DNA of 64,000 bases from IMG/VR virus record IMGVR_UViG_2681813318_000003; one strand, written 5' to 3'. The DNA is from a virus (lineage: Duplodnaviria; Heunggongvirae; Uroviricota; Caudoviricetes). Below the pieces are notes generated by a model that was not told the DNA's origin, made no database searches, and saw nothing but the letters and a program-made list of their open reading frames with translations. This document shows, one piece after another, positions 24,837 to 30,950 of the stretch (position 1 is its first letter; each line of letters begins with the position of its first letter). Position numbers and translations under genes: made by a program.

Positions 24837-25049
24837 TTAGTGTATTTTCTTTAACAGACCCCAAAGTGTTCCGGCTTTTGTAGTCAGTTTTCCTGTTTCT
24901 GGATCGTACATACGCCATTCACGCCGCTGGTGGACGATATACCCATCTTCACGTTCCAGACGCTCAAGAATGCCAGGCTGCTTGAAACCCTTAGCACGCC
25001 AGTAGCCGCTTGTTTTCTCGATTTCCAGACCTGCCAGTGTTAATGCCAT
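24837..25049 (-). CDS. hypothetical protein
   Basis: 70-aa ORF. Confidence 0.4.
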   Translation of the reverse strand: MALTLAGLEIEKTSGYWRAKGFKQPGILERLEREDGYIVHQRREWRMYDPETGKLTTKAGTLWGLLKKIH

Positions 25050-25384
25050 TATCCAACCTCCTTGCAGTCATCGAAAAGGTAGCTTTGCTGAGAAGCGTGA
25101 ACGCCATAGAAGCCCTTGTATTTGTTGTATACGAAGTGGTCTTCTCCGACGCCGGTTAATTTGCCATTACGGTTTGTGAGATATGGGGATGACAATACTC
25201 GATCGTCACGCACTACATAGAACTGGTCGCCGCTGTCTACGACCATCGCGCCATATGGTGCTTTTATGACGTCGGTAAAAGCGCCATTCTTAATGTCGGC
25301 TACAGACATTTCACACTGATAAACAGTGGTGTCGGCCACAACGATCGAAGAAAGGAACAACAAAGCGAATGGGATGGCCTTCAT
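25049..25384 (-). CDS. secreted hypothetical protein
   Basis: N-terminal signal-peptide-like MKAIPFALLFLSSIVVA. Confidence 0.5.
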   Translation of the reverse strand: MKAIPFALLFLSSIVVADTTVYQCEMSVADIKNGAFTDVIKAPYGAMVVDSGDQFYVVRDDRVLSSPYLTNRNGKLTGVGEDHFVYNKYKGFYGVHASQQSYLFDDCKEVG

Positions 25385-25599
25385 GCTGCCACCTCTTTGA
25401 TTACATCAAATGCTGAATTAAATACGAGCACGATAGCCAAAGCGTTTATGACTACTTCGTTCACCGGGGAAAATACTTTACGAATGACACCAGTGAAAAT
25501 GCAGTCGATGACAAAAGCTATTGACACGATGAGTAACAAGTATTCAATAAAAATCTTCATGATAGGTAGATACTAACTTATATAAATTTTACTGTAAAC

Positions 25600-25930: not shown

Positions 25931-26356
25931 TCAATCTTCTTGTTTAGGGAAAAACTGTTCAATAACTCTGTCAACGGCTGTGTCTATATGGAGTAGATGC
26001 CACACAACCATATCTTTGCTTCCCATGCCTTGTGTGAATATCACGTCATACTTACGCCATGCGCAGTGGAACCAATATGCTGAGTCATCAATTGGTAAAT
26101 CCTCTCCCGCCTCTTTGAAGTATTTCAGCAGCATTGCCTGCTCTGCCGTTGGCGTTGGACCTATTTCCTGAGCGTACATACGGATGAATCGCTGCCAGTC
26201 TGTCTCGTCGGGGGTTGGATCTGGTGGGGTCATTTCTGCGATAGCGTTTCGTAGCTGATGCGCCCAATCAGGTTCAGGAAAGCCTTTTGCTACTTCATCA
26301 TCAATAACATCCAGAGCCACGTTTGCGGCATCGTAGAGTTTCTTAATAGCTGTCAT
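25931..26356 (-). CDS. hypothetical protein
   Basis: 141-aa ORF; AAACAAATTGTTT palindrome 17-29 nt upstream. Confidence 0.5.
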   Translation of the reverse strand: MTAIKKLYDAANVALDVIDDEVAKGFPEPDWAHQLRNAIAEMTPPDPTPDETDWQRFIRMYAQEIGPTPTAEQAMLLKYFKEAGEDLPIDDSAYWFHCAWRKYDVIFTQGMGSKDMVVWHLLHIDTAVDRVIEQFFPKQED

Positions 26357-26412
26357 GTTTTCTTATCCTTTTAAACAAATTGTTTTCTTAATAAGATAAT
26401 TGCGATAAAAAA

Positions 26413-26430
26413 GGCGTCCAACTGGACGCC
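26413..26430 (-). terminator. rho-independent terminator GGCGTCC-AACT-GGACGCC
   Basis: Minus-strand read has the hairpin followed by TTTTTTAT. Confidence 0.7.
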
Positions 26431-26447
26431 TGAACTTTTTAGGGGAG

Positions 26448-27278
26448 TTATTTCACTGTAATGAAAGGAGTGTTAGCCCCTTGAGTCATGTACTGCGGTA
26501 ACTGGCCATTCCATTTATTGATGGCTTCCAGTTCCATAACGTTCGGGTTTTGACGCAGAGCTTCACCGCGCAGACGAATGGCGTCTGCTTCTGCTTGCGC
26601 ACGAGCACGGATAGCATCAGCTTCACCATTAGCCTGTTCACGTAGCATATTCGCCTCAGCTTTACGTTGTTCAACTTCCTGCTGACGTTGCAGAGTACGC
26701 TGGTTAGCCGTTACTTTGGCGTTAATAGATTCAATGACAGTTTTTGGGTAATCAGGCTTTCCAACCCATGACAGGCTCAGTACCTCAATACCAACCGGAG
26801 ACATCTCTTTCTGAATATCTTTCAGTGCGTTGTCCAGCAATTGTGCCTTACCACCGTCGATAAATGAGTCAGTGGTCATACGGCTGGCCAAACGGTTTAG
26901 AGAGTCGGCAATTTTCTGACGCAGATCTGATTCGGTGATATCGTCTACGCCTTTGCGATAGGTCTGGAACACCGTCGTTACCTTGTCACGATTAACCAGA
27001 TACGCAACGCCAATTTTGTGACCAATAGCAGTACCGTCACTCATCTGGAATGTGAACGGCTCGTCGTAGGTCTTCATTTGTTTGAAGGTCGGGAATACGT
27101 AAAGTTCGGTGTTAAGACCTGTCCATTGGCGACCAACGCCAACCACTTCACCAATCCCTTTGTCTTCACCTAATTTGTTTACTTTGATGCCAACGTATCC
27201 AGGCTCCACGCGATCGCAGCCAGTAAGACCCATTGTGCAAATAGCCGCCAGAGCAACTGCAAGTAAACCTTTCTTCAT
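26448..27278 (-). CDS. SPFH (band 7, stomatin/prohibitin-like) domain lipoprotein
   Basis: Lipobox LTGC; SPFH-like core followed by an Ala/Glu/Arg-rich coiled-coil. Confidence 0.7.
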   Translation of the reverse strand: MKKGLLAVALAAICTMGLTGCDRVEPGYVGIKVNKLGEDKGIGEVVGVGRQWTGLNTELYVFPTFKQMKTYDEPFTFQMSDGTAIGHKIGVAYLVNRDKVTTVFQTYRKGVDDITESDLRQKIADSLNRLASRMTTDSFIDGGKAQLLDNALKDIQKEMSPVGIEVLSLSWVGKPDYPKTVIESINAKVTANQRTLQRQQEVEQRKAEANMLREQANGEADAIRARAQAEADAIRLRGEALRQNPNVMELEAINKWNGQLPQYMTQGANTPFITVK

Positions 27279-27281
27279 TAC

Positions 27282-27482
27282 TTATTTCCCCTTTGCTTTG
27301 ATTAATGAGTTGATAAACTTACGACCAGCAATAAGACCGATTACAGGAGCACCAAAACCAACGATAACTCCAAACATGACGGCTAAATCACTCTTGGTAG
27401 AAATCAGCGACGGAACCAGTAAACCGTAGATGAGAGCCACTGAAAGGCCTGTGGCTACTGCCAATAGATAGATTTTGATCAT
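27282..27482 (-). CDS. small membrane protein
   Basis: 66 aa with two TM segments; its stop overlaps the start of the SPFH gene. Confidence 0.55.
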   Translation of the reverse strand: MIKIYLLAVATGLSVALIYGLLVPSLISTKSDLAVMFGVIVGFGAPVIGLIAGRKFINSLIKAKGK

Positions 27483-27511
27483 GTGTTTTCCTATGTGGTT
27501 GTTATGCGAAA

Positions 27512-27540
27512 ATAATAAGTAAGTACTTATATATTTTCAA
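27512..27540 (-). promoter_or_regulatory. sigma70-like promoter TTGAAA-17-TATTAT
   Basis: -35 at 27535-27540 and -10 at 27512-27517 on the minus strand; directly after the terminator, ~25 nt before the 27482 start. Confidence 0.5.
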
Positions 27541-27551
27541 GAGATAAAAAA

Positions 27552-27568
27552 GGCGTCCTGTGGACGCC
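27552..27568 (-). terminator. rho-independent terminator GGCGTCC-TGT-GGACGCC
   Basis: Minus-strand read has the hairpin followed by TTTTTTAT; downstream of the RecA-like stop. Confidence 0.7.
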
Positions 27569-27574
27569 TTGTGT

Positions 27575-28648
27575 TTACTCTTCTACTGACTCGGTGGGGT
27601 TGTCTTTTGCTCTTCGGTCGTCGATTGCCTGCAAAGCCGCAATGATTTCAGCCAGTGGCTTCTCCCGATACATCTCGACGATCTGCGATTTGGTGTATTT
27701 CTTGTCACCAATTTCAACTCGCCCGCTGGCGTTCTTTGGCAGGTATCCTTCTTCCAGCATGTACTCGACGAGCGATTCGATAACGTCGAGGCCACGAGTA
27801 GGATCGAAGTAGAATTTCCAGGTGCATTTGCCATACGGTGGTGCAACTTTGTTTTTGATGCATTCTGCGCCTACGTCCTGGCCGATCTTCTCTTTACCAT
27901 CCTTCATTACCGATGCACCAAGACGGATACGTACAGAAGCGTAGAACTTCGGTGAATCTCCACCTGGCGACGTAGTAGGGTCGCCAAACATTACACCGAT
28001 TTTTGTGCGAACCTGATTCAAGAAGATGATGCAGGCGTTGTATTTGCGTGCCCACAAAGCCAGAGTAGGGAAGTTCGCACTTGTCGCACGAGCCAGTGCC
28101 GTATTGTCGTTCATGTTTAGCTGATCTTTGTCTTTGGCAGTGCCTTCAGCCATCTTTTCGAACTTCTCGGCTTTGGTGTTCGGAACCATAGACGCAAGTG
28201 AGTCAGCCACGATACAGATAGGTGCTGATTCAGGGATAAGCTCTTCATCACGTACCAATTTAAGTATTGTGCCGATCAACTCTACAGAGTCTTCGAAGGT
28301 GTCAGGCTGCTTGTATACCCACTGACCGTCATCCTCATCTGCGTTCAGGCCATTGGCTACAGCCAGGCCAACGTCAAAACTGTTTTCATGATCGAGGAAT
28401 ACCGCCAGACCATCTTGTTTTTGAGCGGAGATCATCGCTGCTGTCGCAAGGAACGTTTTCCCTGCACTTGGAGGACCGAATACTTCGACGATACGACCAC
28501 ATGGGAAGCCGCCATCGTAACGACCGGAAATAGCTTTGTTTAACGGTGGAAAGCCTGTATCAATCCAATGAGTTACTTTCTGAATTTCGTCGTTGCTACC
28601 GATTTTCTTTTTCAGAGCAAGTGCCAGTGCGGATTTTCCTTTTGCCAT
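27575..28648 (-). CDS. RecA-like recombinase
   Basis: GRIVEVFGPPSAGKT (Walker A) and FLNQVRTKIGVMFGDPTTSPGGDSPKFYASVRIRLG closely resemble RecA as I recall it. Confidence 0.85.
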   Translation of the reverse strand: MAKGKSALALALKKKIGSNDEIQKVTHWIDTGFPPLNKAISGRYDGGFPCGRIVEVFGPPSAGKTFLATAAMISAQKQDGLAVFLDHENSFDVGLAVANGLNADEDDGQWVYKQPDTFEDSVELIGTILKLVRDEELIPESAPICIVADSLASMVPNTKAEKFEKMAEGTAKDKDQLNMNDNTALARATSANFPTLALWARKYNACIIFLNQVRTKIGVMFGDPTTSPGGDSPKFYASVRIRLGASVMKDGKEKIGQDVGAECIKNKVAPPYGKCTWKFYFDPTRGLDVIESLVEYMLEEGYLPKNASGRVEIGDKKYTKSQIVEMYREKPLAEIIAALQAIDDRRAKDNPTESVEE

Positions 28649-29921: not shown

Positions 29922-30950
29922 TTACAGAGAGTCCAGCTCTCTCAGTAGGTCATCCAGACCTTCATCTTCCGTCGCAGATGCGGTTGCTACAGATGTCGCT
30001 GCGACTGCTTCAGACTCTTTGACTGATACGGCAACGGCAGCGGAACTTGCCTCTGGTTTAAATTCAGTTTCAACGGCACGGAGGATTTCTTCATCAACCA
30101 GACTGGTTGGTTCAGAAGCCGGTGTGTGCGCGGTTGCTACAGCCGTCGCTCCTTCTGTATGACCAGTGACAGAGCCAAATCCAGGTAGTGCCGCAGCCGA
30201 TGTTTTCGCGGTTGAGGAAATTGCTGGTGCAGATGCTGCGGCAGTTGGTGCAGCGATGCCAATCAGACGACCCATAGTGCGAACTGTCGACAGAAGACGA
30301 GTTTCATCAGCCTGATTTGCGTATGCGATCAGATCATGCTGAGTGTTCCAGAATTTATCTTCGATATCGCCTTTGTAGACTTTACGCTTAGGCGAGACGT
30401 CATATTTGGTATCGCGACCAGAGCCAGTACGTTTAATCAGGAATGCGTAGCCTTCCTCTTTGCTCAGTGGATTGCCGATATCATCAGCGATGTCTTCGGT
30501 GATTGCTTTGCAGATATCATCGAATACAGTAGACGGCAGCTCGATTAACTGGCATTTCTCAGCATCTGCGAAATCCTCACGAGCAGAAAGAATGCCGTTG
30601 ACCAGGTAGCGAGGAGTGGCACGCATTTGACCGATGCGTTCTTCCATTGCTTTGTTACCCTTGTGACGAGCGCGACCTTCCATCACCATTTCGCATAGCT
30701 GACAAGCGCGACCGTGAGTATGTTGCTCACAAATATAAGCGTTGGTTGCTTCTTTACCTTCCTCGTTCTGATACTTAACGTAGTGCATACCGAAAGTCTG
30801 GAAGAACTTACCGTTTGGGTCGTCTTTATTCGGGAAGATGCGGATATAGTTGACGCCGTCTTTTAAGCGAGTCAGATCAACGTTGTTACCACGTTTGGCG
30901 GCAATGTCTTCACGAGTTTTGTTAAGCAAATCAAGTAATGTCTTAGACAT
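29922..30950 (-). CDS. putative single-stranded DNA-binding protein
   Basis: Cys/His cluster (CEQHTHGRACQLC), Ala/Ser/Thr-rich linker and acidic tail DEGLDDLLRELDSL; position in the replication module. Confidence 0.5.
   Translation of the reverse strand: MSKTLLDLLNKTREDIAAKRGNNVDLTRLKDGVNYIRIFPNKDDPNGKFFQTFGMHYVKYQNEEGKEATNAYICEQHTHGRACQLCEMVMEGRARHKGNKAMEERIGQMRATPRYLVNGILSAREDFADAEKCQLIELPSTVFDDICKAITEDIADDIGNPLSKEEGYAFLIKRTGSGRDTKYDVSPKRKVYKGDIEDKFWNTQHDLIAYANQADETRLLSTVRTMGRLIGIAAPTAAASAPAISSTAKTSAAALPGFGSVTGHTEGATAVATAHTPASEPTSLVDEEILRAVETEFKPEASSAAVAVSVKESEAVAATSVATASATEDEGLDDLLRELDSL

Follow-up and report, generated by a model that had tools for sequence, protein, structure and literature searches.

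A two-gene membrane module of an SPFH lipoprotein and a small hairpin protein in an SSU5/pHCM2-type phage-plasmid

The window analysed here is a 64,000-nucleotide stretch of viral DNA (IMG/VR record IMGVR_UViG_2681813318_000003). Its subject is a cassette of ~1 kb composed of two minus-strand open reading frames (ORFs): 27282..27482, which encodes a 66-aa protein predicted to form a two-helix hairpin in the inner membrane, and 26448..27278, which encodes a 276-aa prolipoprotein with an SPFH (Band 7) domain. An earlier note on this DNA, made from the letters alone, had described a 66-aa protein with two transmembrane (TM) segments, translationally coupled to an SPFH lipoprotein with a long coiled-coil tail, flanked by strong terminators and provided with its own promoter on a phage-borne segment. 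Each element of that description is borne out by the features set out below. The cassette is a self-contained two-gene phage membrane module, and its genes are real and already annotated, with RefSeq labels of ‘SPFH domain-containing protein’ and ‘hypothetical protein’. The corresponding families, phrog_200 and phrog_1130, are not linked to each other in PHROGs or RefSeq, and no function is assigned to either. What goes beyond the first reading is the conservation of the partner, the occurrence of the pair in lytic phages and the membership of its promoter in a motif family. The window region is 95–99% identical in nucleotide sequence to the Escherichia phages CMS-2020a, PhiR41_1 and Cyrano (~108 kb each), and the replicon is an SSU5/pHCM2-type phage-plasmid.

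The cassette and its two products

The hairpin gene comes first and the SPFH gene second, and from the sequence the two appear to be served by one promoter and one terminator. All coordinates of cassette features given below refer to the minus strand. The TAA stop codon of the small ORF (27282–27284) is followed by three nucleotides, GTA, and then by the ATG of the SPFH gene at 27278, so the two ORFs share a single frame: their starts are separated by (27482 − 27278)/3 = 68 codons, and the ORFs lie two codons apart. The last codons of the small ORF contain a Shine-Dalgarno-like run, AAGGGGAAA, which together with the stop codon and the GTA spacer forms a junction at 27279..27293, immediately before the ATG. 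The short gap, the shared frame and the position of this run all support translational coupling. Another Shine-Dalgarno-like sequence, AGGAAAA (27485..27491), lies upstream of the hairpin gene, where AAGGAAACACATG is conserved in relatives.

Both ends of the cassette are marked by intrinsic terminators. The upstream terminator (27550..27570) ends the preceding recA-like unit and forms the upstream boundary of the cassette; it consists of a 9-bp G+C stem, a 3-nt loop and the run UUUUUUAU, with a minimum free energy of −18.1 kcal/mol (z = −6.2 relative to shuffled sequences). The downstream terminator (26412..26431), which closes the cassette, has an 8-bp stem followed by UUUUUUAU and a minimum free energy of −15.1 kcal/mol (z = −4.4). 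Both hairpins are conserved in relatives. The two terminators are also nearly identical to each other, with a GGCGTCC…GGACGCC stem followed by the U-tract UUUUUUAUC (GGCGTCC-loop-GGACGCC-TTTTTTATC). Such a pair could be a duplicated boundary, or could serve as a substrate for deletion or insertion of the cassette.

A sigma-70-like promoter, TTGAAA-17-TATTAT (27512..27540), agrees with the consensus at 10 of 12 positions; the promoter scan as a whole returned no more sites than shuffled sequence does. A 26-nt promoter block, TTGAAAAT[A/G]TATAAGTACTTACTTAT, is invariant in eight relatives with ~80% coding identity, in which the flanking sequences have diverged. The −10 hexamer varies at one position among relatives, reading TATTAT, TATCAT or TATAAT. 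The spacer contains a perfect palindrome, TAAGTACTTA (27520..27529), which is a probable operator.

The SPFH protein begins with a lipoprotein signal peptide (27216..27278) composed of a positively charged n-region, a hydrophobic core and the lipobox L-T-G-C. The segment MKKGLLAVALAAICTMGLTG is followed by Cys21 (27216..27218), Asp22 at the +2 position and then Arg. The lipobox conforms to the pattern [LVI][ASTVI][GAS]C within the first ~25 residues, and its cysteine is invariant in distant alignments. Residues 23–209 (26652..27212) form the SPFH/Band 7 domain. The earlier note had let this assignment stand or fall with a profile search; the match to Pfam Band_7 (PF01145) scores 106.2 bits relative to a gathering cut-off of 23.6 (E = 2.6e-30) and covers the full 176-position profile. 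The domain also matches phrog_200, labelled ‘lipoprotein’ (E = 3e-108), and is recognized by Foldseek. Some phage records carry the labels ‘serine protease’ and ‘RIIB lysis inhibitor’, for which our profile searches found no protease or rII family.

The AlphaFold2 model of the protein, computed from a shallow alignment, contains a signal helix, an α/β SPFH core, one long helix and a short C-terminal helix. The long helix spans residues 179–243 (~65 residues; 26550..26744) with pLDDT values of 77–90 and corresponds to the proposed coiled-coil tail; the same helix is present, with pLDDT above 90, in a modelled homologue that is naturally fused to the hairpin. It is followed by a conserved C-terminal tail (…EAINKWNGQLPQYM…TPFITVK; 26451..26549), for which an alignment of 40 sequences (33–60% identity) shows W256 to be invariant and G258 and P261 to be conserved at 90% or more. 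By analogy with SPFH assemblies, we infer that this W-N-G-x-L-P tail is a candidate cap-forming segment and is compatible with formation of a cage.

Comparison of the model with the PDB by Foldseek places erlin1/2, prohibitin and HflK/C in the lead (E = 7e-13 to 6e-12, probability 1.00, 250–310 aligned columns), with stomatin, flotillin and vault next in the ranking (probability 1.00). The three leading fold families are cage formers and occupy a non-cytoplasmic membrane face. By sequence, the only profile matches in the PDB are to prohibitin-2, in the coiled-coil region, and to HflK, near E = 1e-3, and the long helix is aligned with the coiled-coil region of both proteins; the HflK/HflC entries 7vhq and 7vhp match at E = 2e-3 to 5e-3. 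Membership of the HflK or HflC families themselves is ruled out by scores below both equivalog cut-offs (NCBIfam TIGR01932 for HflC, 30.2 bits relative to 134.4, E = 2e-7; TIGR01933 for HflK, 18.7 bits relative to 159.4) and by the presence of a single SPFH gene instead of a K/C pair. The SPFH protein therefore has a cage-type architecture and is not an HflK or HflC orthologue.

The 66-aa protein, MIKIYLLAVATGLSVALIYGLLVPSLISTKSDLAVMFGVIVGFGAPVIGLIAGRKFINSLIKAKGK, matches phrog_1130, labelled ‘membrane protein’ (E = 2.1e-25), and its hydropathy profile has two hydrophobic stretches, TM1 at approximately residues 4–23 (27414..27473) and TM2 at approximately residues 33–52 (27327..27386). The helices are connected by a short, polar turn, PSLISTKSD (27387..27413), and TM2 is followed by a lysine/arginine-rich tail, GRKFINSLIKAKGK (27285..27326). 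Because of the positive-inside rule, the tail is predicted to be cytoplasmic and the protein to be an N-in/C-in hairpin with its turn directed toward the periplasm. Homologues in distant phyla keep the hydrophobicity of the protein and, where helix 1 reaches the periplasmic side, a turn motif, P-x-[LM]-[IVF]-S-x-x-[SD]. As judged from the alignments, the predicted periplasmic turn (P-S-L-I-S-x-K-S-D) is the only strongly conserved element of the hairpin.

A Pfam scan of the 66-aa protein at E ≤ 1 returned only DUF1427 (E = 0.73), with no match to Band_7. Identity with NfeD is ruled out, since there is no PF01957 match at E ≤ 1 and the protein is too short for an OB-fold domain. The hairpin resembles a class II holin in shape, with respect to size, two TM segments and a charged C-terminus. 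We do not assign it to the class II holins or pinholins: its neighbours are the recA-like and DUF7238 genes, and no holin family was matched in Pfam or PHROGs.

Partner linkage, natural fusions and selection

In all 80 of the viral contigs that carry a close SPFH homologue, the SPFH gene is immediately preceded by a two-TM ORF, with a gap of 3 nt or an overlap between the two. This set includes a clade in which the SPFH protein is 78% identical to that of the window and the small protein only ~25% identical. In a species-level genome search built from a 9-sequence alignment, the hairpin is found upstream at ~20 of 31 loci, among them loci from Xenorhabdus, Sutterella, Muribaculaceae, Binataceae, Bacteroidales, Chitinophagales and Polynucleobacter. 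The SPFH protein has homologues in 377 phage-collection records (Pseudomonas, Klebsiella, Erwinia, Escherichia, Burkholderia, Caulobacter, Salmonella, Prevotella and others).

The phages that carry the pair differ widely in type. It lies within an early operon of the P2-like phage P88, and is represented by L05 and an unannotated 62-aa ORF in the lambdoid phage phiP27, by gp044/gp045 in the strictly lytic, N4-like Erwinia phage S6, by adjacent genes in the jumbo Salmonella phage PHA46 and by gp49/gp48 in the temperate Burkholderia phage phi1026b. In two lytic phages with genomes of ~142–149 kb, Salmonella phage R7 (whose record lists Demerecviridae) and Erwinia phage Hena1 (Vequintavirinae), a soluble 54–57-aa ORF is inserted between the hairpin and SPFH genes (L121:1329-1493 and L122:1284-1457), possibly as a third component. 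In each phage group the module is an accessory element. Strictly lytic and temperate phages carry it equally often, it lies in early operons of many unrelated phages and, among the phages examined, it is found only in those of diderm bacteria. Taken from gene neighbourhoods, the predicted hairpin is a genuine, conserved, non-NfeD partner of the phage SPFH protein.

The two proteins are also found as single polypeptides. Among 1.84 billion cluster representatives we identified 2,816 relatives of the SPFH protein, 195 of them at E ≤ 1e-30. A hidden Markov model of the hairpin, built from 20 diverse sequences, matches the N-terminus of 15 of the best 150 representatives at 50% identity (E = 3e-11 to 9e-4). 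The fused proteins contain 322–392 residues and are arranged as hairpin, basic linker, third hydrophobic helix with a lipobox, and SPFH domain. Ten of them belong to one alignment clade (P0168, P0303, P0306, P0186, P0341, P0353, P0369, P0377, P0384 and P0420), and all ten retain the lipobox cysteine after the third helix. Given this arrangement, the fused proteins might be precursors that are cut by signal peptidase II into a three-TM piece and a mature lipoprotein.

One fusion, P0369 (337 aa), was confirmed in the DNA of a 39-kb contig on which a P22-type portal gene is also present; another, P0157, was not found in viral contigs. The model of P0168 (mean pLDDT 84) places three TM helices at the N-terminus, ahead of an SPFH and coiled-coil body like that of the window protein, and its PDB matches are the same, including the QmcA–YbbJ SPFH–NfeD complex (8z5g). 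A 1:1 fusion that places the hairpin turn and the SPFH domain on one side of the membrane, predicted to be the periplasmic side, is a classic signature of two subunits of one complex.

The two genes differ in how fast they change. Compared with relatives at ~80% DNA identity, the mature SPFH protein is 94–96% identical, with a dN/dS of 0.02–0.03 at a dS of ~1.5–1.7. Relative to the same sequences the hairpin is 59–64% identical, with a dN/dS of 0.13–0.22. Three of the four comparisons with a finite value had a dS near or above 1.5. Over all comparisons it diverges faster (59–74% identity versus 94–99.6% for the SPFH protein). These substitution patterns indicate that both genes are real and under purifying selection, that the SPFH protein is unusually constrained for the product of an accessory phage gene and that constraint on the hairpin falls mostly on its turn and its hydrophobicity. 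In one relative (L026), the SPFH protein is 99.6% identical and the hairpin 74% identical. Positive selection on the hairpin is unsupported by the dN/dS values above, and the pattern looks instead like recombination because it coincides with a stretch of reduced DNA identity extending from the end of recA through the hairpin gene to the signal peptide.

Promoter motif family and genomic setting

The palindrome in the promoter spacer is the core of a 19-nt motif, GTAAGTRCTTAYCTATYAT, that recurs across the window. A search allowing up to three mismatches gave 14 matches at 11 distinct sites (1073, 5120, 6302, 7342, 16887, 25559, 27512, 31032, 36625, 39278 and 59692), compared with 0.08 expected. 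All 11 sites are intergenic, and several lie 30–130 nt upstream of minus-strand genes. One of the genes preceded by the motif, 29922..30950, has a counterpart in Cyrano that is annotated as a gp32-like single-stranded DNA-binding protein (SSB). The motif family looks like a dispersed operator or promoter regulon of the phage-plasmid, and the cassette is probably switched together with other phage units through the shared motif. Its fixed position after recA and its shared promoter motif weaken a reading of the cassette as a free, constitutive ‘moron’. A connection with lysogeny-like maintenance, which the earlier note had put forward, is likewise weak, with the module equally common in strictly lytic phages and its promoter part of a phage-wide family.

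The full cassette is carried on 106–120 kb plasmids in 195 of 5,426 complete E. coli genomes, and diverged copies are present in chromosomal prophages. It occupies the same post-recA position in the phage-plasmids of E. coli, Salmonella, Enterobacter, Citrobacter and Yersinia that were matched at the DNA level, with ~80% nucleotide identity in Salmonella, Enterobacter, Citrobacter and Yersinia pestis pMT1-type plasmids. Homologues of 73–78% identity occur on Klebsiella and Raoultella contigs of ~100–112 kb. On the Y. pestis pMT1-type plasmids (H91–H93, 53–137 kb) a recA–hairpin–SPFH block is found at ~80% nucleotide identity, and a 108-kb contig of Y. pestis NCTC5923 encodes an SPFH protein that is 94% identical.

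Annotations of neighbouring genes in Cyrano include RepA, a P1 Cra-like protein, RecA, an exonuclease, the gp32-like SSB, UvsY and SbcCD. In the window, the RecA-like gene (27575..28648, minus strand; Pfam RecA, E = 2e-42) lacks an intein; its counterparts in Cyrano and many related plasmids are ~1.27 kb longer, and their products are annotated as intein-, LAGLIDADG- or Hint-containing RecA. The cassette is followed immediately downstream by a DUF7238 gene (25931..26356, minus strand; E = 5e-38). One homologue, P0018 (303 aa), joins Band_7 and DUF7238 in a single product and is probably a deletion or frameshift variant. A second pair of small membrane or secreted proteins is encoded at 25049..25560 (minus strand), where a 59-aa hydrophobic ORF (25381..25560) overlaps the start of a 111-aa ORF (25049..25384) whose product begins with a signal-like sequence. 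No Pfam family matches either ORF, and the pair is preceded by the 19-nt motif site at 25559.

Membrane side, proposed arrangement and alternatives

In Enterobacterales, an aspartate at position +2 acts as a Lol-avoidance signal that retains a lipoprotein in the inner membrane, with a strength that depends on the +3 residue. The sequence C-D-R is present in 95 of the 101 lipobox-bearing proteins among the 120 closest homologues examined. In several independent lineages (P0002–P0012, P0075, P0076, P0081 and P0082) the lipobox cysteine is replaced by Tyr, Trp or Phe through single-base changes. Some of these variants are common (50–175 contigs), and loss of lipidation appears to be tolerated or favoured in the lineages concerned. 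Following loss of the cysteine, the signal peptide should remain as an uncleaved inner-membrane anchor, and the lipidated and cysteine-loss forms therefore both predict an inner-membrane protein with a periplasmic SPFH domain. We infer an inner-membrane location for the SPFH protein and a periplasmic one for its SPFH domain, on the side of HflK/C and not that of QmcA/YqiK.

We propose, with moderate confidence and by analogy with characterized SPFH assemblies, that the cassette encodes a periplasm-facing SPFH ring or cage with a stoichiometric TM hairpin docked by its turn. In this arrangement, one short, translationally coupled, terminator-bounded mRNA would make both proteins. The prolipoprotein would be cleaved and lipidated at Cys21 and retained in the inner membrane through the aspartate at +2, placing the SPFH domain, the ~65-residue coiled coil and the W-N-G-x-L-P tail in the periplasm. 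The SPFH protein would then oligomerise, by analogy with HflK/C, prohibitin and erlin, to form a dome enclosing part of the inner membrane. The 66-aa hairpin would dock through its periplasmic turn on the membrane-proximal rim of the ring and provide a transmembrane ‘fence’ that a lipid anchor alone could not; in about one-tenth of lineages it would do so while covalently fused ahead of the SPFH signal/anchor helix.

As a whole, the module would remodel or shield the periplasmic face of the inner membrane in the infected or plasmid-carrying cell. A job at this face during infection is favoured because the module is accessory, confined among the phages examined to those of diderm hosts, equally frequent in lytic and temperate phages and located in early operons. 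Within this framework, the most likely use would be to block processes for which the periplasmic face must be reached, chiefly DNA entry by superinfecting phages, a role that we advance only tentatively and by analogy. That a phage-built periplasmic cage of lipoprotein and hairpin bars incoming phage DNA or imprisons a host machine such as FtsH is a doubtful proposition at present.

Several known systems share parts of this arrangement. HflK and HflC have a Band_7 domain followed by a long coiled coil, an inner-membrane anchor and a periplasmic SPFH domain, the placement predicted for the phage protein, and match its model by Foldseek at E ~5e-12. The phage protein differs in being encoded by a single gene, in having a lipid/signal anchor in place of TM helices, in having its own two-TM partner and in its low sequence identity (~17%). 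The SPFH–NfeD operons (QmcA–YbbJ, YqiK–YqiJ and archaeal stomatin–PH1510) also pair an SPFH gene with an adjacent, co-transcribed gene for a small multi-TM partner, sometimes fused to it, and the QmcA–YbbJ complex (8z5g) is both a fold match and a precedent for an SPFH cage with an operon-encoded membrane partner. In contrast, the phage partner is a 66-aa hairpin without an NfeD OB-fold domain, and the gene order places the partner first. QmcA faces the cytoplasm, unlike the phage protein with its lipoprotein signal peptide.

Prohibitin and the erlins, the top full-length Foldseek matches (E = 7e-13 to 2e-12), lie on a non-cytoplasmic membrane face, and the coiled-coil region of prohibitin-2 aligns by sequence. 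These proteins are eukaryotic (mitochondria and endoplasmic reticulum), hetero-oligomeric and anchored by a TM or hydrophobic N-terminal segment, and are 14–21% identical to the phage protein. For the exclusion role, the closest analogy is functional: superinfection exclusion by phage T4 involves Imm, an inner-membrane protein with two TM segments, and Sp, a periplasmic protein. Both cases combine a small early or accessory phage membrane protein with a partner that is periplasmic in T4 and predicted to be so here, and such pairs occur in lytic and temperate phages, but T4 Imm and Sp have no sequence or profile similarity to the pair described here.

A number of observations weigh against a cage-and-hairpin assembly at this membrane face. 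How strongly Asp at +2 retains a lipoprotein varies with the +3 residue (Arg in the window protein), and the +2 rule cannot be carried over to non-enteric hosts, in which the +2 residue is Ser, Thr, Gly or Glu. The AlphaFold2 model has a mean pLDDT of 71.6 and is weak in residues 15–60 (below 50), and the fold models are monomers that say nothing about cage formation. Some of the fusions could be recoded stop codons or sequencing errors, and one, P0162, is a C-terminal fusion that is topologically odd. The hairpin was not detected beside the SPFH homologues of phiCbK-like phages, which have a multi-TM protein instead, of a crAss-like phage or of a Cytophagales group; in Bruynoghevirus U47 a one-TM protein takes the place of a detectable hairpin. 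Where the hairpin is missing, the SPFH protein must be able to work alone or with other partners. Two E. coli/Shigella chromosomal copies of 79% identity (L087 and L088) likewise have no hairpin ORF within ~350 nt upstream, and may be prophage remnants or a partner-independent form.

Also weighing against the proposal, neither protein matches an exclusion-protein family in Pfam or PHROGs. A known anti-phage defence system was rejected for the pair, as neither protein has a PADLOC match at E ≤ 1. In the searchable literature we found no experiment or functional study on the phage SPFH family, only annotations and speculation, and a survey of SPFH proteins in Pseudomonas does not mention phages. 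A role in adsorption or DNA entry has been speculated for the SPFH gene of the N4-like phage GIB1 (PMC13239085), and a role in lysogeny control for those of Burkholderia phage CSP3 (PMC10269572) and a Pseudomonas satellite (PMC4936722); in phage PhiSH19 the SPFH gene adjoins a predicted exclusion gene (PMC3220722). The hairpin partner is unmentioned in all four of these reports, and elsewhere the role of phage SPFH proteins is said to ‘remain unclear’.

Among the alternatives, we consider it unlikely, though less so than the others, that the module mimics HflK/C or traps FtsH. A phage cage of this kind would capture FtsH hexamers or compete with HflK/C, and so change how membrane proteins and phage regulators, CII-type proteins among them, are degraded. 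The predicted position on the same side of the inner membrane as HflK/C, the rank of HflK/HflC among the best sequence and fold matches and the very strong purifying selection, which would fit contact with a conserved host protein, all agree with such a role. In the lambdoid phage phiP27 the module lies between the repressor gene and xis/int, a region that we take to be equivalent to the PL arm of lambda, which carries the FtsH inhibitor cIII. Within the HflK/C cage, FtsH touches SPFH2 through its periplasmic domains (PMC12624060), a precedent for an SPFH cage that surrounds a client. The phage protein, however, fails the HflK/HflC equivalog models by a wide margin, is only ~17% identical to HflK/C, is encoded by one SPFH gene with no K/C pair and lacks an N-terminal TM helix like the one that makes contact with FtsH. 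Moreover, N4-like, jumbo and Vequintavirinae-like phages, which are strictly lytic and make no lysis–lysogeny decision, carry the module equally often, and it is also present in phages of Bacteroidota.

The distribution bears on a second alternative, that the cage is a general envelope stabilizer which buffers inner-membrane stress in a phage-shock- or flotillin-like manner and keeps the proton motive force until lysis. SPFH proteins generally organize membrane microdomains (PMC12624060), and placement in the early operons of many unrelated lytic and temperate phages would suit such a function. Nothing ties the family specifically to stress buffering, however, and the module is accessory in each phage group and predicted to be confined to the periplasmic side; we regard this reading as quite unlikely.

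The hairpin itself suggests a third alternative, a toxin-restraint or abortive-infection pair in which the SPFH cage holds a pore-forming or holin-like hairpin until a trigger for lysis timing or superinfection killing. The size, two TM segments and basic tail of the hairpin are typical of class II holins, its tight coupling to and fusion with a regulator-like partner resemble toxin–antitoxin logic, and it evolves much faster than the SPFH protein. On the other side, no holin, toxin or defence family is matched in Pfam, PHROGs or PADLOC, and the neighbours are recombination genes and DUF7238 rather than an endolysin or spanin. Conservation in the hairpin centres on the predicted periplasmic turn and not on the helices, an unusual pattern for a pore, and a covalent 1:1 fusion fits a structural subunit better than a caged effector. 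Together these features make a caged toxin very unlikely.

Most improbable is a vesicle-exported lysogenic-conversion or virulence lipoprotein with an effect in the animal host, for instance by stimulating TLR2: the module is carried on Y. pestis pMT1-type plasmids and a precedent exists in Pasteurella multocida PM0222, a prophage HflK/C-like protein likened to the phage SPFH family by description only and reported in outer-membrane vesicles as a TLR2 agonist whose deletion attenuates virulence (PMC9872710), but Asp at +2 speaks against sorting to the outer membrane or to vesicles, the module is frequent among lytic phages that infect environmental and plant bacteria, and TLR2 activation is generic to lipoproteins.

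What is new in the phage SPFH module is its linked or fused non-NfeD partner, a predicted HflK/C-like topology that relies on a lipid anchor, the very strong constraint under which the SPFH protein evolves, its breadth across phage types and its place in a promoter motif family. The cages formed by SPFH proteins (HflK/C, prohibitin, erlin, stomatin and flotillin) have been a structural focus since 2022, and their effect on the enclosed membrane patch is debated. The cassette is a minimal mobile SPFH system of ~1 kb that is carried by at least 377 sequenced phages, by E. coli genomes and by Y. pestis pMT1-type plasmids. As a small, self-contained pair, it offers an easy system for studying how an SPFH ring recruits a transmembrane partner. 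Its retention in early operons leads us to expect a scorable phenotype, in exclusion, burst size or proteolysis. If it had no measurable effect, the pair would remain a correctly annotated set of accessory genes. If the proposed periplasmic cage of SPFH lipoprotein and hairpin does shut out phage DNA or confine a host machine, it would be the first viral SPFH compartment and would represent a new and very widespread class of exclusion or takeover device.

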